This document shows positions 32,520 through 64,000 of a stretch of 64,000 bases of DNA, one piece after another. Made by a program: the position numbers and the translations under genes. The stretch's first letter is position 1. The number at the start of each line of letters is the position of its first letter. The notes under the pieces were generated by a model. That model saw only the letters and a program-made list of their open reading frames with translations. It ran no database searches and was not told the DNA's origin. This DNA comes from Eledone cirrhosa. Taxonomy: Eukaryota. The stretch spans positions 388,368,001 to 388,432,000 of the forward strand of contig OZ024740.1 of assembly GCA_964016885.1 (NCBI GenBank), given 5' to 3'.

Positions 32520-32566
32520 CATACATACACACAAATACATATATACACACATACACATACACAGAC

Positions 32567-32599
<33 letters not shown>

Positions 32600-32608
32600 T
32601 ACACACAT

Positions 32609-32651
<43 letters not shown>

Positions 32652-32660
32652 TATATATAC

Positions 32661-32759
<99 letters not shown>

Positions 32760-32788
32760 AAAGAATAGAGGTGTAACACACAAGTTAT

Positions 32789-33192: not shown

Positions 33193-33209
33193 TATATATA
33201 TATACAAAT

Positions 33210-33240
<31 letters not shown>

Positions 33241-33255
33241 CACACCTGCCCACAC

Positions 33256-33348
<93 letters not shown>

Positions 33349-33373
33349 CACACACACGCCCACACATACATAC

Positions 33374-33438
<65 letters not shown>

Positions 33439-33445
33439 CATACAA

Positions 33446-33516
<71 letters not shown>

Positions 33517-33553
33517 ATTAAATAAATGGAAACTATATTTATAAAACCATATC

Positions 33554-33619
33554 TATTTCATTATATATATTTCGGGGATATCATATTAACAATATGCTAT
33601 GCCTTCCTCAGACAAAATA
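33554..33619 (-). ncRNA. Type I hammerhead ribozyme (inverted arm of PLE 1)
   Basis: Reverse complement of 38501-38566. Confidence 0.65.
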
Positions 33620-38500: not shown

Positions 38501-38566
38501 TATTTTGTCTGAGGAAGGCATAGCATATTGTTAATATGATATCCCCGAAATATATATAATGAAATA
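38501..38566 (+). ncRNA. Type I hammerhead ribozyme in the PLE 1 terminal region (stem II partly mismatched)
   Basis: tattttgt-CTGAGGA-agg..catatt gtt aatatg..cccc-GAAA-tatatat-A-atgaaata. Confidence 0.65.
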
Positions 38567-38694
38567 AATATGGTTTTATAAATATAGTTTCCATTTATTT
38601 AATATTGTAAATATACTCCAAATATTTGTCGAGTGCTTTTATATCAGTTATAAATATTTACTAGTTGTAACCCAACAATTTTAAATATAACTTT

Positions 38695-38791
<97 letters not shown>

Positions 38792-38902
38792 TACACATAT
38801 ATATATATATATATACACTTACACATACATATACATACACACATATATACATAAACATACATACATACATACACATATATACATTCATACATACACATAT
38901 AT

Positions 38903-38939
<37 letters not shown>

Positions 38940-39004
38940 TATACACATATATATACATACATATACATACATAAATATACACACATAAAACACATATACA
39001 CACA

Positions 39005-39062
<58 letters not shown>

Positions 39063-39298
39063 TACATATACACACATACAAACAAATATATACACATACA
39101 AATAAATAGGTACTCAATAAATATACGCATATACGCAGGCACATAAAGACACCTCTACAGGCAGAAAATGTAGATACGAAAGAGGTACTCACATAACCAT
39201 AGTGGCCGTATTTCAGGTTGAGGAGGGGTGGGGGTAGGGTGGGGAGGAGGTATAGGGGCCAATAGGGGGAGGTCGTTTTTAGCCATCGGGCTTTAACT

Positions 39299-40495
39299 AT
39301 GGCGAGTGACTCGGCTGAAATTAGCGACCTTGTGGGCCTGTACATCCTACATAACCTGAAGAACCTCTTTACCGGCCTAACGGGAGGTTTATACCGAGAC
39401 GACGGCCTCTTCGCCCTGCATAAGGTTAGCCCCAGAACCACCGATGGGTTTCGAAAAAACTTAAGCTCTTTCTTCTCTAATCTAGGATTTAGTATAACTA
39501 TAGATTCTAATTTGACTAGGGCCAACTTCTTAGATGTCACTCTCGACCTAGATACTTCCCTCTATTACCCGTACCACAAACCTAACGAGTCCCTTAAATA
39601 TATTAATGTTAATTCAAACCACCCCCAAAACATCACTGATAACCTAGTAAAAAGCGTCTCTATTAGAATATCTGGCCTCTCCGCCAACAAAGATATTTTT
39701 AATGCATCTGCCTCCTACTACAATGACGCACTAGCCCGTAGCGGATTTAAAGATAAGATAACTTACCTAGAAACCACCGCAAGATTGCAGAGGAGGAATA
39801 GACATAGGCAGATAAGCTGGTACAACCCTCCCTTCAATAGAGAGGTATCTACTCCGATAGCTAGGATTTTCTTCACTTTACTGAAATTACACTTCCCCAT
39901 ACAACATAGGTACTACACCATCTTTAATAAGAACACTATAAGACTGTCTTACTCCACCACACCTAACCTAGCTAGGAATATAGCCAACCACAATTCTAAA
40001 CTAAATAAGCCAACCACCTCCGAAACCAATCCCCGGACTGGGGCTCTATGTAATTGCCTAAATAAGGAAGCATGCCCACTTGAAAACAAATGCCTCACAA
40101 ATGACATCGTATACAAATGCGATGTCATCTCAGGCACCGAGGATTGCAAAAAAACTTACATCGGCATGACCTCCAACAACTTTAAGACCCGTTGGTATGC
40201 CCATACCCACTCCTTCAGAAGACCGGATAAATCAAATCAGACAACACTCGCCTCCTACGTTTGGGACCTCAAAAGGAACTCCACCCCCTTCACGCTTAAT
40301 TGGAAAATACTCCAGAAAGCGCGCTCTTACAACGGAGGACACAAGGGCTGCGACCTTTGTATTTCAGAGAGCTACGAAATTTTATTCGCCAAGGGCCCGC
40401 TACTGAACAAACTCTCTGAACACTGCCCGAACTGCATGCACAAGAACTTTGCAACTTTCAAACACTTTAAGTCAGTGTTAAAGCCCGATGGCTAA
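39299..40495 (+). CDS. 5'-truncated Penelope-like RT C-half + GIY-YIG endonuclease
   Basis: Motifs [30 protein letters not shown]-x4-CPL-x3-C, IVY...[17 protein letters not shown]. Homologous to the PLE 1 ORF. Confidence 0.92.
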
Positions 40496-40708
40496 AAACG
40501 ACCTCCCCCTATTGGCCCCTATACCTCCTCCCCACCCTACCCCCACCCCTCCTCAACCTGAAATATGGCCACTATGGTTATGTGAGTACCTCTTTCGTAT
40601 CTACATTTTCTGCCTGTAGAGGTGTCTTTATGTGCCTGCGTATATGCGTATATTTATTGAGTACCTATTTATTTGTATGTGTATATATTTGTTTGTATGT
40701 GTGTATAT

Positions 40709-40761
<53 letters not shown>

Positions 40762-40826
40762 TGTGTGTATATGTGTTTTATGTGTGTATATTTATGTATG
40801 TATATGTATGTATATATATGTGTATA

Positions 40827-40873
<47 letters not shown>

Positions 40874-40986
40874 ATATATGTGTATGTATGTATGTATGTA
40901 TATATGTGTATGTATGTATGTTTATGTATATATGTGTGTATGTATATGCATGTGTAAGTGTATATATATATATATATATATGTGTA

Positions 40987-41035
<49 letters not shown>

Positions 41036-41040
41036 GTATG

Positions 41041-41093
<53 letters not shown>

Positions 41094-41109
41094 GTATGTA
41101 TGTGTGTGC

Positions 41110-41190
<81 letters not shown>

Positions 41191-41259
41191 TAGTTGTGTG
41201 GGCAGGTGTGTATATATATATATATGTGTGTGTGTGTATTTGTATATATATATATATAC

Positions 41260-41311
<52 letters not shown>

Positions 41312-41391
41312 TATATATATATAAATATATATATATATATGTATATATATGTGTATATGTGTATATATATGTGTGTGTGTGTATGTGTGTA

Positions 41392-41443
<52 letters not shown>

Positions 41444-41487
41444 TGTGTATGTGTATGTGTGTATATATGTATTTGTGTGTATGTATG

Positions 41488-41558
<71 letters not shown>

Positions 41559-41643
41559 ATATATATATATATATATGTGCGTGAGAGAGAGAGTGTGTAT
41601 ATATATCTGTGTGTGTGTGTGTATGTGTGTATGCCCGTGTGTG

Positions 41644-41770
<127 letters not shown>

Positions 41771-41862
41771 GTATCTGTGTGTGTATATATGCGTTATATG
41801 TATATATATGTGTATATTTATGTATAGGTCTGTGTATGTATGTGTAGGTTTGTATATGTATG

Positions 41863-41911
<49 letters not shown>

Positions 41912-41938
41912 ATAGATATTTATACATATGCATGTGTA

Positions 41939-41969
<31 letters not shown>

Positions 41970-42047
41970 GTGTGTATATATATATATGTGTGTATATATA
42001 TGTGTGTGCGTGTATATATATATATGTGTGTGTATTTGTATGTATAA

Positions 42048-42177
<130 letters not shown>

Positions 42178-42407
42178 GTATATATGTGTGTGTGTATGTG
42201 TGTGTATATGTGTATATATAATATGTATATATATATATGTGTGTGTAAATATATGTATGTATATGTGTATATATGTATATATATGTGTATATATATATAT
42301 GTGTATATATGTGTGTATATATGTATGTGCATACGTGTATATATGTGTGTATATATATGTTTATATGTATGTATGTGTATATGTATGTTTGTATGTATGT
42401 TTGTATG

Positions 42408-42470
<63 letters not shown>

Positions 42471-42471
42471 G

Positions 42472-42540
<69 letters not shown>

Positions 42541-42728
42541 GTGTGTGTGTATGTGTGTATATGTGTGTATATTTTTTTAATATATATGTATATATTTGAG
42601 TGTATGTATGTATATATATATACACATATATATATGTGTATGTGTGTGTATGTATGTGTGTATATATATATATATATGTATATGTGTGGGTGTGTGTATA
42701 TATGTGTGTATATATATATGTATGTGTA

Positions 42729-42781
<53 letters not shown>

Positions 42782-42888
42782 ATATGTGTATATATATGTG
42801 TGTATATGTATATATATATATATATATATGTATGTATGGTGCTTTTTCCTTTTATATGTGTATATATATGTGTATGTGTGTGTGTATA

Positions 42889-42951
<63 letters not shown>

Positions 42952-43210
42952 ATGTATGTGTGTGTGTGTGTTTGTATGTGTATATATTTGTTTATGTGTG
43001 TATATATATATATATATATGTTTGTGTATGTGTATGTATGTATATATGTATGTGGTTATATATATGAATGTGTATATATATATATATGTATATGTGTATA
43101 TATATGTGTGTGTGTGTTTGTGTGTATGTGTGTGTATATGTATATATATGTGTGTGTATGGGTTTTTTTTTATATATATATATATATATATACATATGTG
43201 TGTGCATGTA

Positions 43211-43261
<51 letters not shown>

Positions 43262-43279
43262 GTGTATGTATGTATGCGT

Positions 43280-43348
<69 letters not shown>

Positions 43349-43571
43349 ATGTGTGTGTGTGTGTGTATATGTGTCTGTGTATGTGTATGTATATATGTCT
43401 ATATGTATTTGTGTGTATATGTATACACATGTATATTTGTGTTTGTATGTATGAGTGTGAGTGTATTTATTTGTGTATATATATGTGTGTGTGTGTATGT
43501 ATGTGTATGTGTGTGTGTATGTGTATATGTATATATATATATATATATGTGTGTCTGTGTATGTGTATATA

Positions 43572-43623
<52 letters not shown>

Positions 43624-44224
43624 CGTATGTATGTATATGTGTATGTATGTGTGTGTACATGAATATATTTTTATATATGTGTGTGTTTTTTTATGTGTGT
43701 ATATGTGTTTGTGTGTGTGTTTATGGTTGTGCGTAAGTGTGTGAGTGAGTATGTGTTTTTTTGTTTTTTTGTGAATGTGTCTGTTGATTTTTGGCATATA
43801 GTTGATTAGTTTAAGAGAAGTTCGAAGATAATAGTAAGATATGCACTCAGTATTTTGAATCTGTCTGCAGAATTCTCTAGACCTTTGTCACTTAGTAGAA
43901 CCTTAATGATTTTAGCTTTTAAAGAATCTCCCTTTTCTTTAATTCTATCGACCATGACTGACCCCCACTGATTTTATAGACATCTGTTAGCTTAAGAGAA
44001 ACTTAACGACAAGGAATGGTATCCCATCCGGAACCTGTTTATAGAATTCTGTCTGCCCTTGTTACTCTAAAAACATAAATAAATAAAAATAAACTATAGC
44101 TTTGTAGAATTAGCTTTTAATGAATTCCCTTTTCTATCAACCAATGACCTGCACCCATCCCACTCCCCACCCTCTCCTACCACTTGTAGAGACCTATAAA
44201 TACCATATTTATTTTTTGATACCC

Positions 44225-44275
44225 AGATTCCTGATGATTTCTAATGAATGAAACAGTTCTAGTCCTGTAGAATCT
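44225..44275 (+). ncRNA. Type I hammerhead ribozyme at the 3' end of PLE 2
   Basis: agattc-CTGATGA-t ttc taat gaa t-GAA-acag ttctagtc ctgt-A-gaatct; GUA cleavage triplet. Confidence 0.8.
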
Positions 44276-45057
44276 CTTCTATATTAAAACTTTTATACTC
44301 TGCTATGTATTGAGTACCTTACTTACTGTGGTTACCTCCGATTCAACCCGGAATAACGTATATATATATATATATATACGTTATTCCGGGTATACATTTT
44401 CATATTACAAACGCTACCAGGATTGAACGCCTGTCTCCATCTCCGTTTGATTGTCAAAATACATATTAACATTCTCTATTAGTCTTAAATCTATCAACTT
44501 TTCTATTCTTTACCATTTAATATAAACTGCTATAGATAAAATGAGATTTCTTAATTCAACTCCCTAAAGCATATACCAGCAGGCTACCAGCATTGTTGTT
44601 ATACAGTAGTAGTGAAAATCTCTCTCTTCCTTACTTGACACTTTATATCTGTATTAATACTACTACACCAAACGACCAGCCCTGTCCATTGTTCAATTGG
44701 TCAAATATAGATTAAAATAGGCACTCCCCAATATTCTTATTTAGATAAAATAAGCCATATACTCATTTTATTCTCATTAAAAACCTTCTATACTTGTTTA
44801 CCAGCAAATTGAATTGCCATCTGTCATATACTATGCCTTCTCTTCTTCCTTTCTTACAACTAATATAAATACTTTGATTTTTCTGATTTTTTCCAGTTTA
44901 TCCAATATCTCTGAAGAAGTGACAACTGATTATACATTTGCTATTGAATACTTGTTAACATTATATGATTACGTAAGCAGCGATACATAGGTATTCCCTC
45001 TGTTACAGAAACATATGTCAATACCTAATAAATTCCTTTATATATATATATATATAT

Positions 45058-47115
45058 CTAAGGCGGGTAAAATTCCCGAGATCCATGGACGAGTTCTCTC
45101 CAGCGGTCTCTGTCCCTCATTATCGCTGCCATATCCTGCATCTCCAACAGACCAGTGTCTGTCCTTAGGGCATCAACATATGTTAACCTTGGTCTTCCTC
45201 TTCTAGTGTGTCCATGTAGGGGCTCCCAAAGGAGCACTGAGTGCAATGTCAACTCTGGATGTCGGTGAGCATGTCCAGCCAACCTCAGTCTCCTCTGTGT
45301 CACTTTTGAGCTGACTTTTGGGATGCTCCCATACAGCTCTGAGTTTTTCATCCTCAGTGTTTACTGATTAATGTTCAGAGCCATCCTCAGCATTCTCGTG
45401 TAGCACCCATCCACCATCTGAGTGAGTCTCTTGGTCAGTGTCCAAGTCTCAGACCCATACAGCAGCACAGACTCCACTACAGCAATGAAGAGGCGGATTT
45501 TCAGGTCTCTACGAAGGTCCGACTTCCACACCGATCTCAAGCTGTGATACGCCGCCCAGGTCTTGCTCTTCCTCTCAACCACATCATCTTCCGTATTCCC
45601 AATCTTTGCTCCCAAATACAGGAAGTCCTCAACCAATTCCAGCGGCTTTCCGCCTCATTAGTGATCCCCTCTGGCTTCTCAACATTCTCTACCAGATATT
45701 TTGTTTTAGTCTCATTCATTCTCAGCCCCACACTCATTGACACAGTCTCAACCTCCCGCATCAAATCCTCTGCCTCCTTCACTGTATTTGTCACCAAAAC
45801 TATGTCGTCGGCAAATTCAGCATACGATACCTTTTTCGCCCCAACTCTCCTGCTCTGAGCCGGTGCTACAGTAAAGCTAGAGTCCTGGTGTTTCTCCAGT
45901 GCAAGGCGCATACAATAGTCCACTACGATGATAAAAAGGTAGGGAGCCAATGTATCTCCCTGGAGCACTCCAGCCAGTATCTCAAAGAACTCTGTCATCC
46001 CATCAGGTGTAATGACTTGGGCTTTGGTGTTGGTGTAGAGCAGTGATATCAGGTCCACTATCCTCTTGGGGATTCCATAAGCCTGTAACGGTCCATCAGG
46101 CAGTAACGGTCCACAGAATCAAAGGCCTTCCTAAAGTCAATGAAAACCATGACCGCAGGAAGGCACTTTGCTCTAGCTCCCTCTAATATCCTCCTCAGCA
46201 TCAGGATGTGACTGGTGGTGGATCTACCCTCTCTGAAGCCGTTCTGGTTGTCCCTGAGCTTCTTCTCCATCTCAGGCTGGATCCTGTTAAGAATCATCCT
46301 GTTGAGGGTCTTTGCCACAAGTGACGTCAGTGAGATCCCCCGGTAGTTGTTGGTGTTAGAGTTGTTGGTTTAGTGCTCTGTGTGGAGAGTCAGAGGAGAG
46401 AGAGATTGGATGGACTGAGGAGAGTGTGACGAGGAGGTACGGGCACTTCACCAATGCAGTGGCGAAAGCAAGTGAAACCCTGGTGCCGAGGAAAAAGAAC
46501 AAAGGGAAGCACGTCGGCTCTGCAAACCCAAAAGTGTGTGCAGCCAGAGAACACCTGAAAGCTGCCAGGGACCAATTCTATGCTGATCCTACGGAGGAGA
46601 GGATGGAGACTGTGGAGGTGGTGAGGGAAGAGCTCTGTACCGCTTACACTGCGGTCAGAGAGGAGGCACTGATAGAGAAGATCAGAAGTGTGGAGAGAGC
46701 GATTGACAGATCTGGATGTAACGAGAGCTGGATGATCATCAACGAGATCACAGGGAGGAAGAAAAGGGTTTCGAGTCAGATCCAGGGAACGGGGCCCGAG
46801 GATAGGAAGAGGAAATGGCTAGACCATTTTAGGACCCTACTAGGAGAGCCACCCTCCACAGCCCAGAGCACTGGGGAGATCAGGCGGCTGTTTGAGGAAC
46901 TGGATGTTGAGACAGAGCCCTTCACCAGAGAGGAGCTTCAGAGAGCCAAGAAGAAGATCAAGGAGGGCAAGGCTCATGGAGAAGATGGAGTGGCATCAGA
47001 GGTGATGAAGAGGTGTGATTTTGATGATATCATCCTGGGGTTCTGTAACGGGGCACTGGAGAAAGGAGTTGCCCCGAATCAGTGTGGAGGATCAGTAACA
47101 TCGTCCCAGTGCCAA

Positions 47116-47162: not shown

Positions 47163-47968
47163 AATCATAGATATTATAAGATATTTAATAGAAATGTAGT
47201 TAAGATCAGTTACGCTTGTTGCCCATCAATGAAGCCTAAGATCACTAATTCAAATTATACAAGAACAAATCCAGGATGCAGTTGCAGGAAACCGGATTAC
47301 AGGGCAAATGTAACACCAAATCTGTTGTTTATGAGGCCAAAGCGACACCTTTAATCAACAACCAGCAAGCCAGGAGTGAGCGATATGTTGGCATGACCCA
47401 GGACAGGTTTAAAACCAGGTTTTATGCACATGTTTCTTTTAAGCACTCCGATAAACGAACAGCAATGGCCCTCGCAAGTAAGGTGTGGGAATTCAAGGAT
47501 AAAAACATCCCGTACTCTATCGATTAGTCTATTTTAGACCATTCGAGGGAGTACCAAAGGGGCACAAAGAATTGTTCTTTGTGTACCACAGAAAAATATA
47601 GGATTTTGCTAAACTTGAAAGCCACTTCTGCTTGCCTGAACTCAAAGACCGAGATCTTCAGATGTTGTCCTCATCTGAAATCACATCTGATCTGTAACTG
47701 GATTGACATTCCTATGATAACTCAACCACGTTGAACTCCTTTCCTGCTCTTTACTTCCACTACGGCTTTTTTACCTGCTGAATCCACGTTCTGTACTCTC
47801 GTATTCTCTTTCTCCCTTATCTACCCTTATATTTAAACCTTTTCCTATGTCATTTATTCCCCCCTCTTTTTCCCCCCTACTTTTTTGCTTACCCTTCACA
47901 TACCAAATTTTTTTTATTTTCAGATATCACTTTTTTTTGTGTGTTGCGTATATGTATGTATATGTGTA

Positions 47969-48482: not shown

Positions 48483-48536
<54 letters not shown>

Positions 48537-48647
48537 TTGAAAAAAATGAAAACGAAATTTCATTTCTCACTCTTAGTATGGCACTTACTTAAATGTAAGT
48601 ATGTACGTATACGTACATACATATATGTATACAGACGTACAGTAGCA

Positions 48648-48693
<46 letters not shown>

Positions 48694-48869
48694 CATATAT
48701 ATACACATATGCATACAGGTACACATACATATATGCACGCATCAGTTTAGCCGACGTTTATTATAACGCCTGCTTTGTTCGTTTGTTTGTCAACAAATCG
48801 AACAGCCTGAATTTATGCCATACGGTGTTAAGGCAACCACGTCACCTTTTTGTTCAACACTGACACAGG

Positions 48870-48914
48870 AACGATGTACTAGTTTCAAGCTTGTTAGCTA
48901 TCATCAGCACCGTT
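48870..48914 (-). ncRNA. Type I hammerhead, unit 1
   Basis: Minus strand: aacggtg-CTGATGA-t agct aaca agct t-GAA-actagt-A-catcgtt. Confidence 0.85.
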
Positions 48915-49148
48915 TACCCATCTGCCAGATAGTTGAACGTTCGAAAGTATATACTTTCCTTATGAAAATTAACGGCTGAGCAGCCTAATTTGCATATTGA
49001 GTGAGTTAAATCGGTCAGGCATACCGAAAACGATAAGTTGAAAAAAATGAAAACGAAATTTCATTTCTCACTCTTAGTATGGCACTTACTTAAGTGTAAG
49101 TATGTATGTATACGTACATACATATATGTATACAGACGTACAGTAGCA

Positions 49149-49212
<64 letters not shown>

Positions 49213-49382
49213 TATACACATATACATACAGGTACACATACATATATGCACGCATCAGTTTAGCCGACGTTTATTATAACGCCTGCTTTGTTCGTTTGTT
49301 TGTCAACAAATCGAACAGCCTGAATTTATGCCATACGGTGTTAAGGCAACAACGTCACCTTTTTGTTCAACACTGACACAGG

Positions 49383-49427
49383 AACGATGTACTAGTTTCA
49401 AGCTTGTTAGCTATCATCAGCACCGTT
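49383..49427 (-). ncRNA. Type I hammerhead, unit 2
   Basis: Same motif as unit 1. Confidence 0.85.
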
Positions 49428-49661
49428 TACCCATCTGCCAGATAGTTGAACGTTCGAAAGTATATACTTTCCTTATGAAAATTAACGGCTGAGCAGCCTA
49501 ATTTGCATATTGAGTGAGTTAAATCGGTCAAGCATACCGAAAACGATAAGTTGAAAAAAATGAAAACGAAATTTCATTTCTCACTCTTAGTATGGCACTT
49601 ACTTAAATGTAAGTATGTATGTATACGTACATACATATATGTATACAGACGTACAGTAGCA

Positions 49662-49741
<80 letters not shown>

Positions 49742-49911
49742 TATACATATATGCATACAGGTACACACACATATATGCACGCATCAGTTTAGCCGACGTT
49801 TATTATAACGCCTGCTTTGTTCGTTTGTTTGTCAACAAATCGAACAGCCTGAATTTATGCCATACGGTGTTAAGGCAACCACGTCACCTTTTTGTTCAAC
49901 ACTGACACAGG

Positions 49912-49956
49912 AACGGTGTACTAGTTTCAAGCTTGTTAGCTATCATCAGCACCGTT
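49912..49956 (-). ncRNA. Type I hammerhead, unit 3
   Basis: Same motif; stem I fully Watson-Crick (aacggtg/caccgtt). Confidence 0.85.
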
Positions 49957-50190
49957 TACCCATCTGCCAGATAGTTGAACGTTCGAAAGTATATACTTTC
50001 CTTATGAAAATTAACGGCTGAGCAGCCTAATTTGCATATTGAGTGAGTTAAATCGGTCAGGCATACCGAAAACGATAAGTTGAAAAAAATGAAAACGAAA
50101 TTTCATTTCTCACTCTTAGTATGGAACTTACTTAAATGTAAGTATGTATGTATACGTACATACATATATGTATACAGACGTACAGTAGCA

Positions 50191-50312
<122 letters not shown>

Positions 50313-50482
50313 TATACACATATACTTACAGGTACACATACATATATGCACGCATCAGTTTAGCCGAAGTTTATTATAACGACTGCTTTGTTCGTTTGTT
50401 TGTCAACAAATCGAACAGCCTGAATTTATGCCATACGGTGTTAAGGCAACAACGTCACCTTTTTGTTCAACACTGACACAGG

Positions 50483-50527
50483 AACGATGTACTAGTTTCA
50501 AGCTTGTTAGCTATCATCAGCACCGTT
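50483..50527 (-). ncRNA. Type I hammerhead, unit 4
   Basis: Same motif as unit 1. Confidence 0.85.
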
Positions 50528-50761
50528 TACCCATCTGCCAGATAGTTGAACGTTCGAAAGTATATACTTTCCTTATGAAAATTAACGGCTGAGCAGCCTA
50601 ATTTGCATATTGAGTGAGTTAAATCGGTCAAGCATACCGAAAACGATAAGTTGAAAAAAATGAAAACGAAATTTCATTTCTCACTCTTAGTATGGCACTT
50701 ACTTAAATGTAAGTATGTATGTATACGTACATACATATATGTATACAGACGTACAGTAGCA

Positions 50762-50825
<64 letters not shown>

Positions 50826-50995
50826 TATACATATATGCATACAGGTACACACACATATATGCACGCATCAGTTTAGCCGACGTTTATTATAACGCCTGCT
50901 TTGTTCGTTTGTTTGTCAACAAATCGAACAGCCTGAATTTATGCCATACGGTGTTAAGGCAACCACGTCACCTTTTTGTTCAACACTGACACAGG

Positions 50996-51040
50996 AACGG
51001 TGTACTAGTTTCAAGCTTGTTAGCTATCATCAGCACCGTT
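50996..51040 (-). ncRNA. Type I hammerhead, unit 5
   Basis: Same motif as unit 3. Confidence 0.85.
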
Positions 51041-51274
51041 TACCCATCTGCCAGATAGTTGAACGTTCGAAAGTATATACTTTCCTTATGAAAATTAACG
51101 GCTGAGCAGCCTAATTTGCATATTGAGTGAGTTAAATCGGTCAGGCATACCGAAAACGATAAGTTGAAAAAAATGAAAACGAAATTTCATTTCTCACTCT
51201 TAGAATGGCACTTACTTAAATGTAAGTATGTATGTATACGTACATACATATATGTATACAGACGTACAGTAGCA

Positions 51275-51388
<114 letters not shown>

Positions 51389-51558
51389 TATAGACACATG
51401 CATACAGGTACACATACATATATGCACGCATCAGTTTAGCCGACGTTTACTATAACGCCTGCTTTGTTCGTTTGTTTGTCAACAAATCGAACAGCCTGAA
51501 TTTATGCCATACGGTGTTAAGGCAACCACGTCACCTTTTTGTTCAACACTGACACAGG

Positions 51559-51603
51559 AACGATGTACTAGTTTCAAGCTTGTTAACTATCATCAGCACC
51601 GTT
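51559..51603 (-). ncRNA. Type I hammerhead, unit 6
   Basis: Same motif; a stem II C-G pair is changed to U-G. Confidence 0.8.
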
Positions 51604-51837
51604 TACCCATCTGCCAGATAGTTGAACGTTCGAAAGTATATACTTTCCTTATGAAAATTAACGGCTGAGCAGCCTAATTTGCATATTGAGTGAGTTAAAT
51701 CGGTCAGGCATACCGAAAACGATAAGTTGAAAAAAATGAAAACGAAATTTCATTTCTCACTCTTAGTATGGAACTTACTTAAATGCAAGTATGTATGTAT
51801 ACGTACATACATATATGTATACAGACGTACAGTAGCA

Positions 51838-51917
<80 letters not shown>

Positions 51918-52087
51918 TATACACATATGCATACAGGTACACATACATATATGCACGCATCAGTTTAGCCGACGTTTATTATAACGCCTGCTTTGTTCGT
52001 TTGTTTGTCAACAAATCGAACAGCCTGAATTTATGCCATACGGTGTTAAGGCAACCACGTCACCTTTTTGTTCAACACTGACACAGG

Positions 52088-52128
52088 AACGGTGTACTAG
52101 TTTCAAGCTTGTTAGCTATCATCAGCAC
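52088..52128 (-). ncRNA. Type I hammerhead, unit 7 (stem I shortened by a deletion)
   Basis: Core intact; deletion immediately after atcagcac. Confidence 0.65.
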
Positions 52129-52283
52129 GTATATACTTTCCTTATGAAAATTAACGGCTGAGCAGCATAAATTCAGGCTGTTCGATTTGTTGACAAACAA
52201 ACGAACAAAGCATGCGTTATAATAAACGTCGGCTAAACTGATGCGTGCATATATGTATGTATACCTGTATGCATATGTGTATA

Positions 52284-52367
<84 letters not shown>

Positions 52368-52601
52368 TGCTACTGTACGTCTGTATACATATATGTATGT
52401 ACGTATACATACATACTTACATTTAAGTAAGTGCCATATTAAGAGTGAGAAATGAAATTTCGTTTTCATTTTTTTCAACTTAACGTTTTCGGTATGTCTG
52501 ACCGATTTAACTCACTCAATATGCAAATTAGGCTGCTCAGCCGTTAATTTTCATAAGGAAAGTATATACTTTCGAACGTTCAACTATCTGGCAGATGGGT
52601 A

Positions 52602-52646
52602 AACGGTGCTGATGATAGCTAACAAGCTTGAAACTAGTACATCGTT
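52602..52646 (+). ncRNA. Type I hammerhead, inverted unit
   Basis: aacggtg-CTGATGA-tagctaacaagctt-GAAA-ctagt-A-catcgtt on the + strand. Confidence 0.88.
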
Positions 52647-52888
52647 CCTGTGTCAGTGTTGAACAAAAAGGTGACGTGGTTGCCTTAACACCGTATGGCA
52701 TAAATTCAGTCTGTTCGATTTGTTGACAAACAAATCAGGCGTTATAATAAACGTCGGCTAAACTGATGCGTGCATATATGTATGTTTACCTGTATGCATA
52801 TGTGTATATATATGTATATATATATATATATATATGCATGCTACTGTGCGTCTGTATACATATATGTATGTACGTATACATACATACT

Positions 52889-52935
<47 letters not shown>

Positions 52936-53661: not shown

Positions 53662-53960
53662 TATATAAAGAATGAATAATAACAGGTCGACATCATAAAA
53701 ATGTAATTTATTCCGTGTGCTTACAAGTGTTTCCACGGTGGTACTGCAGCCTAGTTATGCTACGTGCAAATTCACAAGTACTTGCAGAACTCGAATATCC
53801 AATGCTGTGACCACTGTTTCCTCAGAGCATTGGATATTCGAGTTCTGCAAGTACTTGTGAATTTGCACGTAGCATAACTAGGCTGCAGTACCACCGTGGA
53901 AACACTTGTAAGCACACGGAATAAATTACCTTTTATGATGTTTACCTGTTATTATTCATT

Positions 53961-53969
<9 letters not shown>
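53662..53969. repeat. ~308-bp near-perfect palindrome with a ~19-bp centre
   Basis: ttccgtgtgcttacaagtgtttccacggtgg...ccaatgct pairs with agcattgg...ccaccgtggaaacacttgtaagcacacggaa. Confidence 0.93.
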
Positions 53970-54039: not shown

Positions 54040-55038
54040 TTTGAAGTTAACAAGGTTCATATGAAGTATCTAAGTATGAGTTTTACACACACATATATAT
54101 GTGTCTTTGTATTTGTATGTATGTGTTTGTGATATGTATGTATATGTATGTGTATGTGTGTATGTGTGTGTATATATGTATATGTGTGTGTATATATGTA
54201 TATGTGTGTGTGTATATGTATATGTGTATGCGTATGTATGTGTTTATGTATTTGTATATGTATATTTATGTATGAGAGTGTGTGTATTTATTTATTTTTA
54301 CGTATGTATGTGTACGTGCATTTGTGTGTATTGCTTACCACATGTGTTTGTTCATTTATTTGTTGCCTGTATCGCTGTCAACACTATAATAATCTTTATA
54401 TTCATTTTTTTTTAATGTTATATATGTTTTCTTATATTTATTTGTGTATGAGTATGTAGGTGTGTGTATATATTTCTATATTTGTGCATGCGTATGTATA
54501 CGTGTAAATATGTGTGTATGTATGTGTATGTATGTACGTGTGTATATACGTATGATCGTGTGTGTGTATGTATGTGTATGTATATATGTATGTATATGTA
54601 TGTGTATGTATATATATATATGTGTGTGTGTGTGTATATATATGTATGTGTGTATGTATGTATATGTGTGTTTATGTATATATATATATATATGCATGTA
54701 GATGTGTGTGTGTGTGTGTATTCATGTTTGTCTATTTGTATGTATCTGTATGTATGAATATGTTGATATTTATGTGTGTATGTATGTATGTGTATATGTC
54801 TGTGTATGGATATATGTACACATATATATGTGTGTGCGTGTGTGTATATGTGTGTGTGTATGTATGTGTGTATGTATATATATATGTGTATGTCTATATT
54901 TGTGTGTGTGTGTGTGTGTTTGCATGTGTGTTTTCATTTTTCTTTCCTTCTTCCTTTTCCAGCCTCACTTTCATATAGAATATATTTTTGTCTTTAAAAT
55001 CCAATAAATACACCAAGCCAATAAATACACCAGGATGT

Positions 55039-55099
55039 TTTCATTCTGATGATTGAAAGCAAAATTCTTTTGCTTTTAAGAAACCACTGGTAAATGAAA
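55039..55099 (+). ncRNA. Type I hammerhead ribozyme (orphan, Penelope-terminus-like)
   Basis: tttcatt-CTGATGA-ttgaaagcaaaa ttc ttttgcttttaa-GAA-acca c tggt-A-aatgaaa. Confidence 0.85.
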
Positions 55100-55124
55100 T
55101 AATTGCCTTATGTTGTTTATTACA

Positions 55125-55197
<73 letters not shown>

Positions 55198-55345
55198 GAA
55201 ATAGGATTTCGCTTCAAGCATAGTTTTATACAATATGTATAAATATTTCGTATCTCCAAAGAAATACGGTTTTATGAAGCCGTAGCTATGCAAACACCGG
55301 GGGGCTAGCGCCATCTGGTGATGTCCAACAGAAGAAAGGGGGACA

Positions 55346-55389
55346 ACCGTCTATGCATTTCAGGCTTAACTGGCCTTCCTCAGGATGGT
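55346..55389 (-). ncRNA. Type I hammerhead ribozyme
   Basis: Minus strand: accatc-CTGAGGA-aggc cagttaa gcct-GAA-atgcat-A-gacggt. Confidence 0.8.
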
Positions 55390-55593
55390 CCCTCCCACCG
55401 CTTGGAGATACTAAATATTTATACATATTGTATAAAGCTGTGCTTGAAGCGAAATCCTATTACTTTTTTATTATAAGTTGAGCCAACTTATGCAGCTTCA
55501 TATGCAAATGAGATTAATCACCTCATTTATACAGATGAGAAAATATATATTCTCGCCTGTCTTCTAGTCCAGCAATCCCAAGCGGTGGGAGGG

Positions 55594-55637
55594 ACCGTCC
55601 TGACGAAGGCCAGTTAAGCCTGAAATGCATAGACGGT
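55594..55637 (+). ncRNA. Type I hammerhead ribozyme
   Basis: accgtc-CTGACGA-aggc cagttaa gcct-GAA-atgcat-A-gacggt; stems I and II are perfect. Confidence 0.9.
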
Positions 55638-55789
55638 TGTCCCCCTTGCTTCTGCTGGACATCACCAGAGGGCGTTAGCACCTCGGTGTTTGCATAGCTA
55701 TGGCTTCCTAAAACCGTATTTCTTTGGAGATATGAAATATTTATACATATATATATAGATATTGAGTGTTTGAGTATATTTTGACTTAA

Positions 55790-55872
<83 letters not shown>

Positions 55873-57420
55873 TAAAGTTAGTCTTTCGTCACTGATCTTC
55901 CAACCATCATTGGTATTTCATCGCTTTAAAGACCATAAACCTCCGGTTGGTGCGAGCAACGGCTAAAGAAAGTTGTTGAGACACATACATAAGGGGAATG
56001 AGCGAGAAACAAAAATGGTAAAGCAACGAAAAGTGAGGAAGAATGAGTCAAGTCCCAGATTTCCATGAATATAAGTTCGGTGAAATCGTGAACCAGAGAG
56101 AATAAAGCCCATCAAACCTAGTCGAAATGTGAGCAAGGAAGGAATTCTGCACAGGTCAAACGGGAGGAAGTAGGAGTCCAGTCCGTGAATTCGGTGAACA
56201 TAAATTCTGTGAAATCGTAGACGAGAGAGAGAAAAGGGGAACCAGCCTGGCCAAGCGTGCGAGAGAAAAGAATTACGCACAGGTCAAACGTGAGGAAGTA
56301 GTAGCAGAGAGTGTGTGAAGGGTGAGGAAGAGGCTAACAGAGAGAGTGACTGTTAGATAGGGTAAAGATACAGAGAAAGAGGAAGCACCTTCACCGAACT
56401 TAGATTCATTGAAATCTGGCCACCTGAGTCAAGCACTCGATCAATATGCAATTCTAGCACTTCGGCCACGTGAGTGAGAGGAGACTTTGGGATCCTGGTG
56501 ATGAATCTCCGTGACTGCCTGAGGCGTGAGATCTCAACCAAGGTTGAGCCGAGCAGCTGTGGTGTCGAGGGGGATAGGCATCGTGGGCTCTACCACCGGT
56601 GCAAGGATTCCAACGTGCGTCGAATGAGTTTGACGAGAGAAAGCGGTGGGAGCTGTTATATTTGGAGCAGTTCCTTCATCTCTTGTGCCTGTTGCGTGTG
56701 GCGCACGCGTGGAAGTGATCGACTTTCCGCAGACCAGACGACTGTGGAGAGGCGGGCATTTTTACTGAGGTTTTGGCGATGGGAGCAGCAAACTCTAAAT
56801 AGGGAGAATATGGGGATGGTTGGAATATGTGTGGATGGGTTGAACGATTGAGTTGTGGAAAGGGATTGATGATGGATGATTAAGAGGATAGTTGTATAGA
56901 AGGATAGAGAGAGTGGCCAAATGGATAGGAATGAGAGTGAGAGGAGGAGGTAAATAGATAGATGGATAGGTTCTATAAAGGGAGAGAACAAAGAGAAGGG
57001 AAACGAAATGTATATACCTAAATTTGAAAAAGGCACCATTTATAGTCAATGACATTATAACAGATTCCTGCAATGATAGAATTCAAACAAAATGTCTTAT
57101 GGTATTAATTCCATCGTTCTTTGTTATGGTAGTTGTTTTTTCTCCTCTTTTCAACCATTTGTTCTCAATATTGGCGAGCAGCTTCACGTGGTTGTGCTTG
57201 TTGCTGCAGACCCCAGCATCAGCATTTATAGTGTTCTTAAGATCATAATAGTAAAAAGCGGTATAGAATTTTACTGCAGAAAAATAAATATAATGATAGG
57301 TTTAAGATATGTGTATTGTCTGGTTCTACCTCTTATATTTGTCTCATTGGTATTTTCTGAAGTGCCATAGTATTATTTCTTTTCTTCGTTCGTTGCCTAA
57401 GCATATAATTGATATATATG

Positions 57421-58228: not shown

Positions 58229-58478
58229 TCTAGGGCGGGTAAAATTCCCGAGATACATGGACGAGTTCTCTCCAGCGGTCTTTGTCCCTCATTATCGCTG
58301 CCATGTCATGCGTCTCCAAGAGACCAATGTCTGTCCTTAGGGCATCAACATATGTTAACCTCGGTTCTCCACTTCCAGTGTGTCCATGCAGAGTTTCCTA
58401 CAGGAGCAGTGAGTGCAGTGTCAACTCTGGATGTCGGTGAGCATGTCCAGCTAACCTCAGTCTCCTCTGTGCCACATT
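58229..58478 (-). mobile_element. Short 3' fragment of the same RTE family as 45058-46350, with a target-site duplication
   Basis: Homologous to 45058-45305. cggagatat occurs at 58217-58225 and 58479-58487. Confidence 0.85.
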
Positions 58479-59115: not shown

Positions 59116-62100
59116 CTAACAGTGCTGCGATCGAATGTGGCTTTTTAGCCCAGCCAATGATCTAAAATGTCTTGCACAGAGTCGGCAACCAAAACATTTA
59201 CTGGGAATAGTCGGCTGTGGTTGGAGTTCGTGTACTTTTGCATGTCGCTTGAGTCCTCCTGCTGATTTACATTCTCTACCACATGTTTGGCAAGCATGAT
59301 GAGTAGCATCTCCAACAGCAGCCTGGTAGTCAACCACTGGTCTTACTTTATGACTGCGAAGATGACTTTCGAGTCCAGCTTTGCTTAGGCAGAGTCTCGC
59401 ACAGACGCTGCATGTCAGAAACATAGGAGGACCCTCGCCGTCTGGAAGTGCAACAGCAATACCTTTCCTCACGTCCCGCTTTACTTTCTCGTGTGCGATT
59501 CGAGATGCCTCAAAGGCAACTTTTCCCTCATATACAGTCTTTCTCCATTTATTACGATCAGCAGCAATATTTTCCCATGTATCAGCAGAGATGTTAGCGT
59601 CTTTCAGAGAGGCTTTCAAGGAATCCTTATACCTCTTTTTTGGTTTATGTGGCGGTCGTTTTCCTTTAACCAACTCTCCATAGAAGAGTTGTTTTGGTAT
59701 TCTAGAATCCTTCATCCTGGCAAGGTGACCACTCCAACGGAGTCGCTGCTTAAGCACAAGAGCTTCTATACTGTCACACATAGAGCTTTCCAAAATCTCG
59801 ACATCACTGATGTGGTCCCTCCAGCGAACGCCATGTATCCGTCTGAGACACATCTGATGGAAACGCTCCAATTGCTTAAGGTGGCGTCGATATGTGACCC
59901 AGGTCTCGCAGGCATAAAGAAGACAAGAGAGTACACATGCCCTGTACACCTTTACCTTTGTCCTCCTACATATGTCTCGCCGACCCCAGAGTCGCCTTTC
60001 TAGCTTTCCGAAAGCATCACTTGCTTTCCTAATCCTAAGTGAGATTTCACTGTCAAGGTTGCCGTATCGATTGACAGTGCTTCCCAGGTAGATAAACTGA
60101 TCAACCACTCCAAGTCGTCTGCCATACACATAGATGTTTGGTTCAGTGTACTGCCTACCAGGTGCAGGTTGGTACATGACGACGGTTTTCTTGAGACTGA
60201 CAGTCAAACCCAGGGCAGTGCAAGCGTCAGAAAATACATTCAAAATGTGCTGCATATCACTCTCTGTGTGCGCTACAAGATCGCAATCATCTGCATACAA
60301 GAGGTCTCTTATGACTGATGTAAATACTTTTGTCTTCGCAGCAAAGCGCCTGATGTTAAATATGCTGCCTGAGGTTCGATATCGGATGTAAACACCATGC
60401 TCGCAATTCCTGAATGCAATACAGAAAACCATTGCAAAGTATATGGCAAACAGGGTCGGTGCTGGAATATCCCCCTGTTTCACTCCATTTTTTACTGAGA
60501 TAGGCTCCGACATGTTACCTCCGACATTAACCCAAGCCTTCATGTCGTCATGGAAAGACCTAACTAAAGCAAGGAACTTATCAGGGCAACCAAGTTTCTG
60601 GAGAACCTTCCATAATGCATCTCTGTTGACAGTATCGAAAGCCTTTGTCAGATCGACAAAAACCTGATACAGATCCAAGCCCTGTTCAATGCACTTCTCC
60701 TGGAGCTGTCTAGCTGAGAAGATCATATCAGTAGTGCCGCGTCCAACACGAAAACCAGATTGACTTTCAGGAAGGACACAATCTGCAATGTGTGTCAGCA
60801 GACGGTCCAGAAGCACCCTACATAAAACTTTCCCCACGACAGAAAGCAATGATATACCTCTGTAGTTCCCACAATCATTCCTGTTACCCTTTCCCTTGTA
60901 CAAGACCACCATTACTGCATCTCTCCAGTCCTCAGGCACGGATTCATTAGCCCATATCCTTCCAAACAGAGAGTGAAGATGTTGCAGGAGTCTCTCACCA
61001 CCATATTGTAGGAGCTCAGCATGTATGCCATCCATACCTGGAGATCTTCCACTGTTCAGCTTCGAAATAGCCACTGCAACCTCCACAAGTGTCGGAGGTT
61101 CTGCGAGAGCTACTTTCACAGGACTTTCCGGAATGAGATTGAGGAAATCTTCACTGACGACAGACGGCTGATTCAAAAGATCATCAAAGTGCTCTCGCCA
61201 CCTTCGTAGAATTCCCTGTGAGTCACGAAGAAGTTCTTTGCCATCCTTGCTGCGAATCGGTGTCACCAGAGAAGAAGACGGTCCATAAACCTCACGCAAG
61301 AGACTGTACAACAGCTTTGTGTTATTGCAATCAGACGCAGTTTGTATCTCACCAGCCTTCTCACTCCACCACTGATCCTTCATCTGAGAAAGACTCCGCC
61401 TAACACGTGATTTTACATCCCTGAGCTCCTCATGCAACGTATTCCTCTCCTGTAGTTTTGCCGTCAAGTAGCGTGACAGAGCGCGCCTCTTATCAGCCAA
61501 CAAGTCATCTATATGCACATCTTTCTCATTAAACCAGTCCTGATGTTTTCTCTGCACCAATCCCAGAACACGTCTGCCTACATCATAAACCGACTTTTTA
61601 AGGGTCGGCCAATCCTCACCAAGATCTGCAGCCTGCATCTCTTCTTCCAATGTCCTCTTCACATTTTTATCCTTAAGACGAGCAGCATTCAATCTTTTGG
61701 GCAGGGTAACACCAGGAGCCCGGATTTTACGTTTGGTGATTAGATTAACTTTTGCGCGTACCAGGCGGTGGTCCGTCCAGCACTCAGCTCCACGAAGAAC
61801 ACGAACACACTGCACATCCTGTCTGTCACGCATCCTGACTAGGACGTAGTCCAAAAGATGCCATTCCTTAGATGCAGGATGCATCCATGTGGTCTTGAAT
61901 TTGTTCTTTTGTTGGAACATGGTGTTGGTAACACACAGATCCAGCTCCTCACACATCTGCAGCAAGAGCATACCATTGCTGTTACACTTTCCCACCCCAT
62001 GCCTTCCGATTACATTCCATGTGTTAAAATCCCTACCCACTCTAGCATTAAAGTCACCAAGCACGATGACTTTGTCTGCCTGAGGGATATTTCTTAAAAC

Positions 62101-62661
62101 ACCTTTCAAGGCATGGTAAAAGGACAGTTTTTCTTCATCGACAGAATTCATAGTTGGAGCATACACACTCACCAGGGTAGCATATCTTCCCTTGTCCAGC
62201 GGAACTCTCATGGACATAAGACGCTCACTAATCCCCACTGGGAATTCTTCTAATTTATTCACCAGTACAGTCTTAACAGCAAATCCTACCCCAGCCTCTC
62301 TTCTGGTTCCTTCATCTCTTCCTTTCCAGAAGAATGTATATTCTCCACAAAATTCCGTAAGATGACCATCTCCAGCTAACCTCGTCTCAGACAAAGCCAC
62401 GATGTCAAGATCGTAACGTCGAAGCTCCTTTGCAACAAGAGCGGTCCTTCGTTCAGGACGCTCCAAAGAATCCCTGTCAAGCAGCGTCCGTACGTTCCAG
62501 CAGCCAAGACTAAATGCCCTGTTTGGCTCTATTACAATGGCACGATGACGGGCGGGCCCAGGTTGTGATAACTTGGGGCCCCTGCCCTTATTGCCAATGA
62601 TCTTTTTTGTTCCAGAACCCAAATTGGCAATTATCTCGTTTACATTGTTCTGGAACATCAT
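59116..62661 (-). CDS. Intact RTE-clade LINE ORF (1181 aa): APE endonuclease + RT + three C2H2 zinc fingers
   Basis: Endonuclease motifs: GCWNVRTL, LSETR, VYAPT, LGDFNARVG, LLDYVL, TDHRLV. RT motifs: YRGISLL, QSGFR, DLTKAFD, GVKQG, YADD, LLYACETW. Fingers: CSVC..H..H, CQTC..H..H, CRLC..H..H. No stops; (GT)n tail. Confidence 0.96.
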   Translation of the reverse strand: MMFQNNVNEIIANLGSGTKKIIGNKGRGPKLSQPGPARHRAIVIEPNRAFSLGCWNVRTLLDRDSLERPERRTALVAKELRRYDLDIVALSETRLAGDGHLTEFCGEYTFFWKGRDEGTRREAGVGFAVKTVLVNKLEEFPVGISERLMSMRVPLDKGRYATLVSVYAPTMNSVDEEKLSFYHALKGVLRNIPQADKVIVLGDFNARVGRDFNTWNVIGRHGVGKCNSNGMLLLQMCEELDLCVTNTMFQQKNKFKTTWMHPASKEWHLLDYVLVRMRDRQDVQCVRVLRGAECWTDHRLVRAKVNLITKRKIRAPGVTLPKRLNAARLKDKNVKRTLEEEMQAADLGEDWPTLKKSVYDVGRRVLGLVQRKHQDWFNEKDVHIDDLLADKRRALSRYLTAKLQERNTLHEELRDVKSRVRRSLSQMKDQWWSEKAGEIQTASDCNNTKLLYSLLREVYGPSSSLVTPIRSKDGKELLRDSQGILRRWREHFDDLLNQPSVVSEDFLNLIPESPVKVALAEPPTLVEVAVAISKLNSGRSPGMDGIHAELLQYGGERLLQHLHSLFGRIWANESVPEDWRDAVMVVLYKGKGNRNDCGNYRGISLLSVVGKVLCRVLLDRLLTHIADCVLPESQSGFRVGRGTTDMIFSARQLQEKCIEQGLDLYQVFVDLTKAFDTVNRDALWKVLQKLGCPDKFLALVRSFHDDMKAWVNVGGNMSEPISVKNGVKQGDIPAPTLFAIYFAMVFCIAFRNCEHGVYIRYRTSGSIFNIRRFAAKTKVFTSVIRDLLYADDCDLVAHTESDMQHILNVFSDACTALGLTVSLKKTVVMYQPAPGRQYTEPNIYVYGRRLGVVDQFIYLGSTVNRYGNLDSEISLRIRKASDAFGKLERRLWGRRDICRRTKVKVYRACVLSCLLYACETWVTYRRHLKQLERFHQMCLRRIHGVRWRDHISDVEILESSMCDSIEALVLKQRLRWSGHLARMKDSRIPKQLFYGELVKGKRPPHKPKKRYKDSLKASLKDANISADTWENIAADRNKWRKTVYEGKVAFEASRIAHEKVKRDVRKGIAVALPDGEGPPMFLTCSVCARLCLSKAGLESHLRSHKVRPVVDYQAAVGDATHHACQTCGRECKSAGGLKRHAKVHELQPQPTIPSKCFGCRLCARHFRSLAGLKSHIRSQHC

Positions 62662-62752
62662 TGAATTGGAAAAAAAAAAAAAAAAAAAAAAAGTAATAAT
62701 AATAGTAATAATAATAATAATAATAATAATACTACACTATTAATAATTATTA

Positions 62753-63627: not shown

Positions 63628-63631
<4 letters not shown>

Positions 63632-64000
63632 GGAAAAAATGAAACGAAATTTCATTTCTCACTCTTAGTATGGCTGTTACTTAAATATAAGTATGTATAC
63701 GTACATACATATATGTATACAGACGTACAGTAGTATTATATATATATACATACATGCACACATATATATATGTACGTATGAATTCACCGAACATTTATTA
63801 TAATGCTCGGTATGTTTGTAAACAAACATCCCGAATTAAGCCGTACAGTGTCTAACAACCATCGTTGCTCATTTGTTCAACACTGACAAAGGAACGCTAT
63901 ACTAGTTTCAAGCTTATTAGCTATCGTCAGCAACGTATACCTTCCTGCAAGATGATTGAACGTCTGAAAGTATATACTTTCCTTATGCATATTAACGGCT
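63628..64000 (-). mobile_element. Another copy of the hammerhead-bearing unit (19840-type subfamily), cut by the window end
   Basis: Near-identical to 20323-20555 and 20100-20265. Confidence 0.88.
63893..63936 (-). ncRNA. Type I hammerhead ribozyme
   Basis: Minus strand: acgttg-CTGACGA-tagctaataagctt-GAAA-ctagt-A-tagcgt. Confidence 0.75.

Follow-up and report, generated by a model that had tools for sequence, protein, structure and literature searches.

Organization of the Locus

Within the window, i.e., the whole stretch of 64,000 nucleotides of Eledone cirrhosa DNA analysed here, an insertion bordered by AT repeats is made of a plus-strand arm and a partial inverted arm that meet head to head. 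The plus arm (55402–55750) is composed of one complete 322-bp unit (55402–55723, +), supported by junction read-through, ORF scan and fold z score, and of a repeat of its own first 27 bp (55724–55750, +), which forms the tail-less 3' end and is identical to 55402–55428 at 25 of 27 positions. The inverted arm (55195–55405, −) is 211 bp long, contains unit positions 177–322 followed by 1–65, and is identical to the plus copy at 197 of 211 positions; in particular, proceeding from 55405 to 55195, 162 of 173 positions are shared with 55578–55750 and then 35 of 38 with 55429–55466. This last segment (55195–55232, −) is a 38-bp tail past the plus-arm end point that belongs to the minus arm only, the plus arm ending at 55750 without it. 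Because the minus arm crosses the unit junction, the 322-bp period recorded in the first-pass annotation is confirmed; the joining of the inverted partial copy at a TTGG microhomology is likewise borne out, the two arms overlapping by exactly 4 nt (55402–55405) and mismatching beyond.

The unit has a GC content of 41.6% and is non-coding, the longest ATG ORFs being of 25 aa (+) and 35 aa (−). The terms family and period both stand on 1.08 units and one partial arm, with neither a further copy nor a tandem dimer of the unit within the 64-kb window. Two exact-pattern scans against prokaryotic genomes, where no match was expected, gave none and are uninformative on animal copies. Positions 55467–55577 have a single occurrence in the window, which leaves room for a one-off deletion junction in that stretch.

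The 3' end of the minus arm enters the left (TA)n flank (55129–55193; 32.5 copies, 100% matches), which is the likely insertion target. On the other side the plus arm is followed by an AT-rich spacer of 40 bp (55751–55790), probably host DNA and with no other match in the window, and then by the right (TA)n flank (55791–55869; 39.5 copies); the left end thus adjoins (TA)32 and the right end a short AT run, with (TA)39 located 40 bp beyond. As regards target-site duplications, which in metazoan non-LTR retrozymes are longer than 4 bp when present, both ends of the insertion pass into AT repeats.

Hammerhead Ribozymes of the 322-bp Unit

Each arm carries a type I hammerhead motif at the position already assigned to it by the first-pass annotation: an intact copy at 55594–55637 (+), with the core CUGACGA from 55600 and the predicted cut after 55631, and a decayed copy at 55346–55389 (−), with the core CUGAGGA from 55383 and the predicted cut after 55352. 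Both share CUGANGA, a 4-bp helix II, GAAA, UGCA and a predicted cut after AUA, and their conserved nucleotides differ at position 7 only, as had been noticed. The geometry of the plus copy is canonical, with a 6-bp helix I, a 4-bp helix II (AGGC/GCCU) that is not preceded by an extra unpaired base, and a short helix III whose loop belongs to the AUGCAU palindrome; the usual G10.1-C11.1 pair is replaced by A-U at the base of helix II. In the minus copy an A-C mismatch, the product of a CpG change, interrupts helix I at 55386. The last A of loop 2 and a U at position 1.7, which may form the tertiary pair, occur in both the 322-bp family and the 500-bp family described below.

A relaxed descriptor recovers 15 hammerheads in the window, and any match at all was obtained in one of 200 shuffled windows, so that the hits exceed chance. 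The strict descriptor, which demands a pair at the helix II base, retains 3 motifs instead of 15; of the two arms only the plus copy passes it, as does none of 100 shuffled windows. Rfam gave no match at the gathering score over the whole window, and the 11 weak matches at E ≤ 10 over 55100–55900 do not include any hammerhead family.

The isolated unit is strongly structured, with a linear fold at z −5.8 and a circular fold at z −5.2, neither equalled by any of 100 shuffles; the antisense strand folds equally stably (z −4.9), and fold stability therefore cannot pick the strand. In the computed fold of the circular monomer, helices I and II of the plus copy have probabilities of 0.93–1.0, while helix III, a single pair closed by the palindromic UGCA tetraloop, has a probability of about 0. 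In the minus copy the probability of helix I does not exceed 0.09. The fold is accordingly not the clean one initially described, given the one-pair helix III and the mismatched minus copy. When two 53-nt copies of the motif are co-folded, they are predicted to pair through AUGCAU over 6 bp and to form a double hammerhead that is symmetric, at −35.5 kcal/mol, compared with −15.9 kcal/mol for each copy alone. On these models the hammerhead is of the dimer-dependent type, which is known from newt and axolotl repeats (PMC7229834; PMC4209133). As for the cleavage triplet, AUA was the slowest of four in one viroid hammerhead (PMC1636495).

The 500-bp Family and the Octamer-TATATA Module

A second hammerhead family occupies 48534–52893, where six intact tandem hammerhead units are found on the minus strand with a spacing of 513–571 bp that varies with an internal (TA)n; one unit is internally deleted near 52125, and an inverted arm is joined near 52165. 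Two insertions of a subfamily approximately 83% identical to it lie at 19840–20940 and 63629–64000 and have the same end positions; the subfamily copy at 20710 shows a core change (CUGG) and the copy at 20196 a broken helix III palindrome. A 120-bp palindrome (19667–19789) lies beside the (TA)n tract that borders the insertion at 19840. The ends of the 500-bp family are reproducible: the tailed end has the same position in all 3 insertions compared, and the tail-less end, about 61 bp before it, coincides in both of 2. The array at 48534–52893 contains the tandem ribozymes that define a retrozyme and is a better candidate for cleavage than the 322-bp locus.

The first-pass annotation had denied any similarity between the two families outside the ribozyme core. 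This does not hold upstream, where both share ATATGCAAAT (55500–55509, +), a 10-mer identical in the 500-bp family that includes the octamer ATGCAAAT (55502–55509), and a TATATA located within a palindrome (55544–55549, +), in both families exactly 42 bp past the octamer start. The order of the module is constant, with the hammerhead core following at +98 or +88. The likeness also extends to the colinear hammerhead, the inverted arm, the (TA)n ends and the tailed end about 35–38 bp upstream of the octamer. The families differ in the size of the unit (322 vs. 513–571 bp), in the internal (TA)n, which is absent in the 322-bp unit, and in the tail, 38 bp in the 322-bp element and about 61 bp in the other.

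Among the 14 octamers of the window, 10 are accompanied by TATATA at +42, and all 10 are inside 322-bp or 500-bp elements. The pair at +40 to +44 was found in none of 100,000 shuffles of the unit, and the window-wide matches are 10 against 0.07 expected; these statistics overstate the case because the motif pair was picked after viewing the alignment, and 9 of the 10 sites come from one lineage. The spacer between octamer and TATATA is identical at just 12–13 of 34 positions. Upstream of the ribozyme, the comparison of the unit with 500-bp copies yields z 3.7–4.0 in four of five cases, the fifth copy being cut by the window end, with antisense controls at z 0–2.4; downstream of the ribozyme no similarity was detected in any of the five comparisons. 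A profile of the 500-bp family finds 55482–55633 as its sole match outside the family below E 0.3 (E 0.0014); the profile of the upstream part matches the unit only at E 1.5, the hammerhead-only profile does not recover it, and the number of k-mers that the two families share is no higher than chance would give (10-mer P 0.12). The hammerheads of the two families are colinear and align with one gap, and 6 of 13 hammerhead pairs, the helix III palindrome included, changed on both sides, counts which come down to roughly two independent lineages.

Two motifs kept at one distance across a spacer that has diverged suggest a promoter, and the element probably has a promoter of its own in this octamer-TATATA module, which lies upstream of the ribozyme. 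An octamer and a TATA box at this spacing work as a polymerase II promoter in immunoglobulin genes, and newt satellite 2 reportedly uses an octamer together with an snRNA-type element. A search by eye for an snRNA-type proximal element revealed nothing convincing, and a sigma-70 promoter scan, a model irrelevant to animal DNA, stayed at chance level. The start of the minus arm (55578, about 30 bp after TATATA) was considered as a transcription start and rejected, as the 5' ends of the arms in the 500-bp family fall elsewhere. According to a 2020 review (PMC7761336), retrozymes seem to lack promoters and the metazoan repeats have no motif that points to a partner. A promoter in such elements is not unprecedented: one is already in print for a plant retrozyme LTR, and TATA boxes are described in Penelope pLTRs (PMC3846280). 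In the mainly open-access literature searched, no report of the octamer in hammerhead repeats of this kind was found.

Penelope-Like Anatomy of the Insertion

The 322-bp insertion has the anatomy of a Penelope-like element (PLE), with a head-to-head inverted truncated copy at the 5' end, a one-sided 38-bp tail and (TA)n flanks. Head-to-head inversion, a 30–40-bp tail at one end and (TA)n targets are described as PLE marks (PMC8557442; PMC3846280); in particular, Penelope pLTRs are on record with the tail, the inverted copy and also a TATATATA box (PMC3846280), and Hydra and Naiad PLEs with insertion into (TA)n (PMC8557442). The locus is close to the pseudo-LTRs of Hydra-clade PLEs (PMC8557442; PMC3846280; PMC4209133), with which it has in common the inverted 5'-truncated copy, the 30–40-bp tail at one end and the (TA)n target, besides a TATA-like box and a hammerhead near the end. 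It differs from them in that no RT-GIY-YIG ORF is attached and the hammerhead is short and canonical instead of the long-helix-II minimal form.

Two coding PLEs in the same window display the RWR, DKT, YRDD and CxCx5C motifs, inverted arms, (TA)n ends and a hammerhead near each 3' end. Their ORF pieces (34824–37071 and 39266–40495) have motifs that fit the Hydra clade; Pfam assigned no family to these ORFs, and their class therefore rests on the motifs. The Hydra-type PLE at 33516–38698 has arms approximately 99% identical, each with a long-helix-II hammerhead (33611, −; 38509, +), an ORF split over two frames (34824–35249 and 35194–37071) and a terminal repeat of about 40 bp, and is apparently nested in the other element's inverted arm. 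That other element, at 30067–44350, is a second Hydra-type PLE with a 5'-truncated ORF (39266–40495), a 3' region in which TA/TG repeat takes up about 3 kb and a hammerhead at 44231 has a helix III of 4 bp, and an inverted arm that reaches back to 30067 with a hammerhead at 30127 (−). At approximately 47175–47700 (+) a degraded C-terminal piece of a third Hydra-type PLE has inserted into an RTE-like remnant, where it follows a (TA)n tract.

Using tblastn with 29 PLE proteins (E ≤ 0.1), matches in the window are confined to 34–36, 39–40 and 47 kb, with no PLE protein between 48 and 64 kb. No significant match was found between the unit and the ends of the two coding PLEs (P 0.5–0.87), nor any link with the 5' region of the first coding PLE or with the hammerhead element at 54930–55128 (P 0.5–0.87). 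Because the ends of the coding PLEs do not match, we infer the PLE partner of the 322-bp element from its insertion anatomy only, and not from sequence. Hammerheads of PLE ends are described as minimal, their helix II being long and preceded by an unpaired base (PMC4209133), features that the 322-bp hammerhead lacks; Hydra PLEs are said to have canonical hammerheads (PMC8557442), and a short helix II is consequently compatible with Hydra elements. In the supplement of PMC8557442 two hammerhead words of the element are absent and a third matched a coding stretch only.

A third, unrelated type I hammerhead, which the first-pass annotation had overlooked, is present 100 bp upstream of the 322-bp locus (55039–55099, +), in a single copy in the window, with the core at 55046, a 12-bp helix II, a 3-bp helix III and a predicted cut after GUA at 55092. 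It ends 36 bp before the (TA)n tract and is preceded by a TG/TA-rich tract, as in the element that ends at 44.3 kb; it is probably the 3' end of another PLE.

Age and Predicted Inactivity of the Copy

The arms differ at 14 of 211 sites, of which three are CpG transitions. Private changes are also found in all three copies of the 27-mer; both observations point to decay after insertion, and the 14 differences indicate that the copy is old. Identity is higher between the arms of either coding PLE (about 99%) and among the tandem 500-bp units (98–99%) than between the 322-bp arms, so the 322-bp insertion is the older.

Monomer release requires two ribozymes on one strand, and the locus has one per strand. 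Whichever strand is read through, the computed RNA fold (−353 to −365 kcal/mol) gives the helices of the ribozyme a probability of 0, as the transcript would form a 173-bp hairpin that destroys both ribozymes. With one ribozyme per strand and such a hairpin, the locus should not make circles, and the prediction for this copy is that it yields no circular RNA.

Origin of the Insertion and Alternative Explanations

The features seen in the sequence are a closed non-coding 322-bp unit and two arms whose 3' ends both face outward into AT repeats. They are best explained, and in our judgement quite probably, by an old decayed solo copy of a retrozyme-like non-autonomous element that was inserted by PLE enzymes into AT-repeat DNA. 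In the proposed pathway, tandem copies of the 322-bp family would be transcribed, and neighbouring hammerheads would pair through the palindromic AUGCAU into a double hammerhead and cut after AUA; the resulting 322-nt monomer could be closed into a circle by a ligase of the host. The reverse transcriptase-endonuclease of a PLE, for which the Hydra type is the local candidate source, would then copy more than one unit length from multimeric or circular RNA, and the two cDNAs, one from either end of a nicked (TA)n site, would meet at TTGG. The distance of 40 bp between the right arm and its long (TA)n tract counts against this reading, as do the lack of a tandem dimer in the window, the A-U pair in place of G10.1-C11.1, the slow AUA triplet and the silence of Rfam; as to the cleavage step, 8 of 9 predicted Xenopus dimers failed to cleave in vitro according to bioRxiv 10.64898/2026.07.22.740005. 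A wider proposal, possible and put forward tentatively, is that the two elements, of 322 and 500 bp, represent sister families, non-autonomous but with a conserved promoter of their own (octamer and TATA at the fixed 42-bp spacing) and a transcription start just upstream of the ribozyme, which Hydra-type PLEs inserted into (TA)n with family-specific ends.

The locus could instead be the remnant of a coding PLE, either a pseudo-LTR with its tail or a single ORF-deleted copy, in which case no independent 322-bp family would exist. Every insertion mark is a PLE mark, the coding PLE at 34761–38698 likewise ends in a terminal repeat that is short (about 40 bp), microhomology deletions are described as common in Penelope copies (PMC3846280), and the stretch 55467–55577, which occurs once in the window, would accommodate one. 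The first-pass annotation had itself named a sequence that is only the terminal repeat of a coding PLE as the outcome contrary to its proposal; the 29 queries show no coding PLE attached, with no protein match at 48–64 kb (E ≤ 0.1), although a one-off, internally deleted PLE is still conceivable. The short canonical helices are also at odds with the long helix II and the unpaired 5' base of the hammerhead at 38509, and the single-copy stretch holds the module of a tandem non-coding family, which a random deletion join would not. An origin as a PLE remnant is hence improbable. Still further from expectation is a DNA-level event, i.e., a foldback, a MITE-like element or an assembly chimera in which the hammerhead is incidental: several long inverted repeats do occur in the window, some of them without a hammerhead (53662–53969), yet the 14 differences in 211 with CpG-type changes are unlike a read chimera, the arms are unequal and the tail is one-sided, none of 100 shuffled windows passes the strict descriptor, and pairings have been kept through two-sided changes between families. 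We regard this explanation as very unlikely.

As for the locus being active itself as a retrozyme and source of a 322-nt circular RNA, the intact plus hammerhead, with helices I and II stable in the isolated unit, and the intact promoter-like module would be compatible with it. Excision, however, requires two same-strand ribozymes where one is present, helix III is absent in the monomer fold, and the read-through RNAs of both strands (−353 to −365 kcal/mol) leave the ribozyme helices at probability 0; a transcript that starts inside the plus arm escapes the hairpin yet keeps one cut site. Such activity is extremely unlikely, and the solo copy inserted by PLE enzymes is the reading retained in what follows.

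Comparison with Known Retrozymes and Significance

Metazoan non-LTR retrozymes of coral, mussel and axolotl, as described in PMC7229834, are of 150–450 bp, with GC below 50%, non-coding and self-paired, and the 322-bp unit resembles them in each respect, its size being within the known range as first proposed. The hammerhead is similar to axolotl HHR_Amex1 and newt satellite 2, which are of type I with a one-pair helix III and a palindromic tetraloop and are efficiently cleaved only as dimers (PMC7229834). The differences are that 1.08 units and an inverted arm are found here in place of a tandem array, and that an A-U pair is at the base of helix II. An active retrozyme is defined in bioRxiv 10.64898/2026.07.22.740005 by two tandem ribozymes; no two consecutive ribozyme units are present at the locus, which is thus not filed as an active retrozyme. 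The label retrozyme-like is consequently apt for the size, the GC content, the non-coding nature, the self-pairing and the hammerhead geometry, but not for the two tandem ribozymes, which are missing, nor for an independence from the 500-bp family. No report of cephalopod retrozymes was found in the literature searched, which consisted mainly of open-access papers.

The nearest counterparts are the solo or monomer retrozymes of bioRxiv 10.64898/2026.07.22.740005, dispersed full-length hammerhead-repeat monomers proposed to be moved by PLEs; solo monomers as non-autonomous PLE derivatives have thus already been proposed in that work. The same preprint ties Xenopus retrozymes to pLTRs by sequence, whereas the link here is the insertion anatomy.

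Small hammerhead repeats are widespread in animals, with thousands to more than 100,000 motifs per genome (PMC7229834), and one further decayed copy therefore matters little: the locus is a known kind of element and the octamer-TATA module is the new lead. The partnership between retrozymes and PLEs has been argued so far from co-occurrence and Xenopus sequence trees (bioRxiv 10.64898/2026.07.22.740005). A full PLE signature next to coding PLEs with the same signature is structural support for it in an invertebrate. The strong transcription of such elements is unexplained, and an octamer and a TATA at fixed spacing in two diverged families offer a concrete promoter candidate. If this is true, the module and the fixed ends make the questions of promoter and partner directly testable in an invertebrate.

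Other Features of the Window

TA/TG microsatellites and retrotransposons abound in the animal DNA of the window, in which ARAGORN finds no tRNA genes. To the right of the 322-bp locus a unique, GC-richer stretch (55870–57050) contains a 148-bp direct repeat (56029–56304) and a 30-bp inverted match, and has no long ORF. The palindrome at 53662–53969, of about 300 bp with arms 94% identical, ends at a (TA)n tract, is free of hammerheads by descriptor and is possibly a MITE or a foldback element. Partial tandem copies of an L1/Tx1-type LINE are located at 4506–9884 and 12700–17700, with a long open ORF2 (6615–9884, 1089 aa) whose best named relative is in Argonauta hians (63% identity); in the other homolog searches of the window the best named matches were Argonauta hians (38%) and Branchiostoma (48%). 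At 59116–62736 (−) an RTE-like LINE ORF, about 1,200 aa long and apparently intact, encodes an endonuclease, an RT and C-terminal C2H2 zinc fingers. Fragmented remnants of a Helitron-like Rep/Pif1 helicase are found at 25958–28979 (+), recognised by a Pif1 2B domain match and for the rest by eye, and a dispersed 249-bp repeat is present at 45058–45306 and 58230–58478 in copies that are 90% identical.
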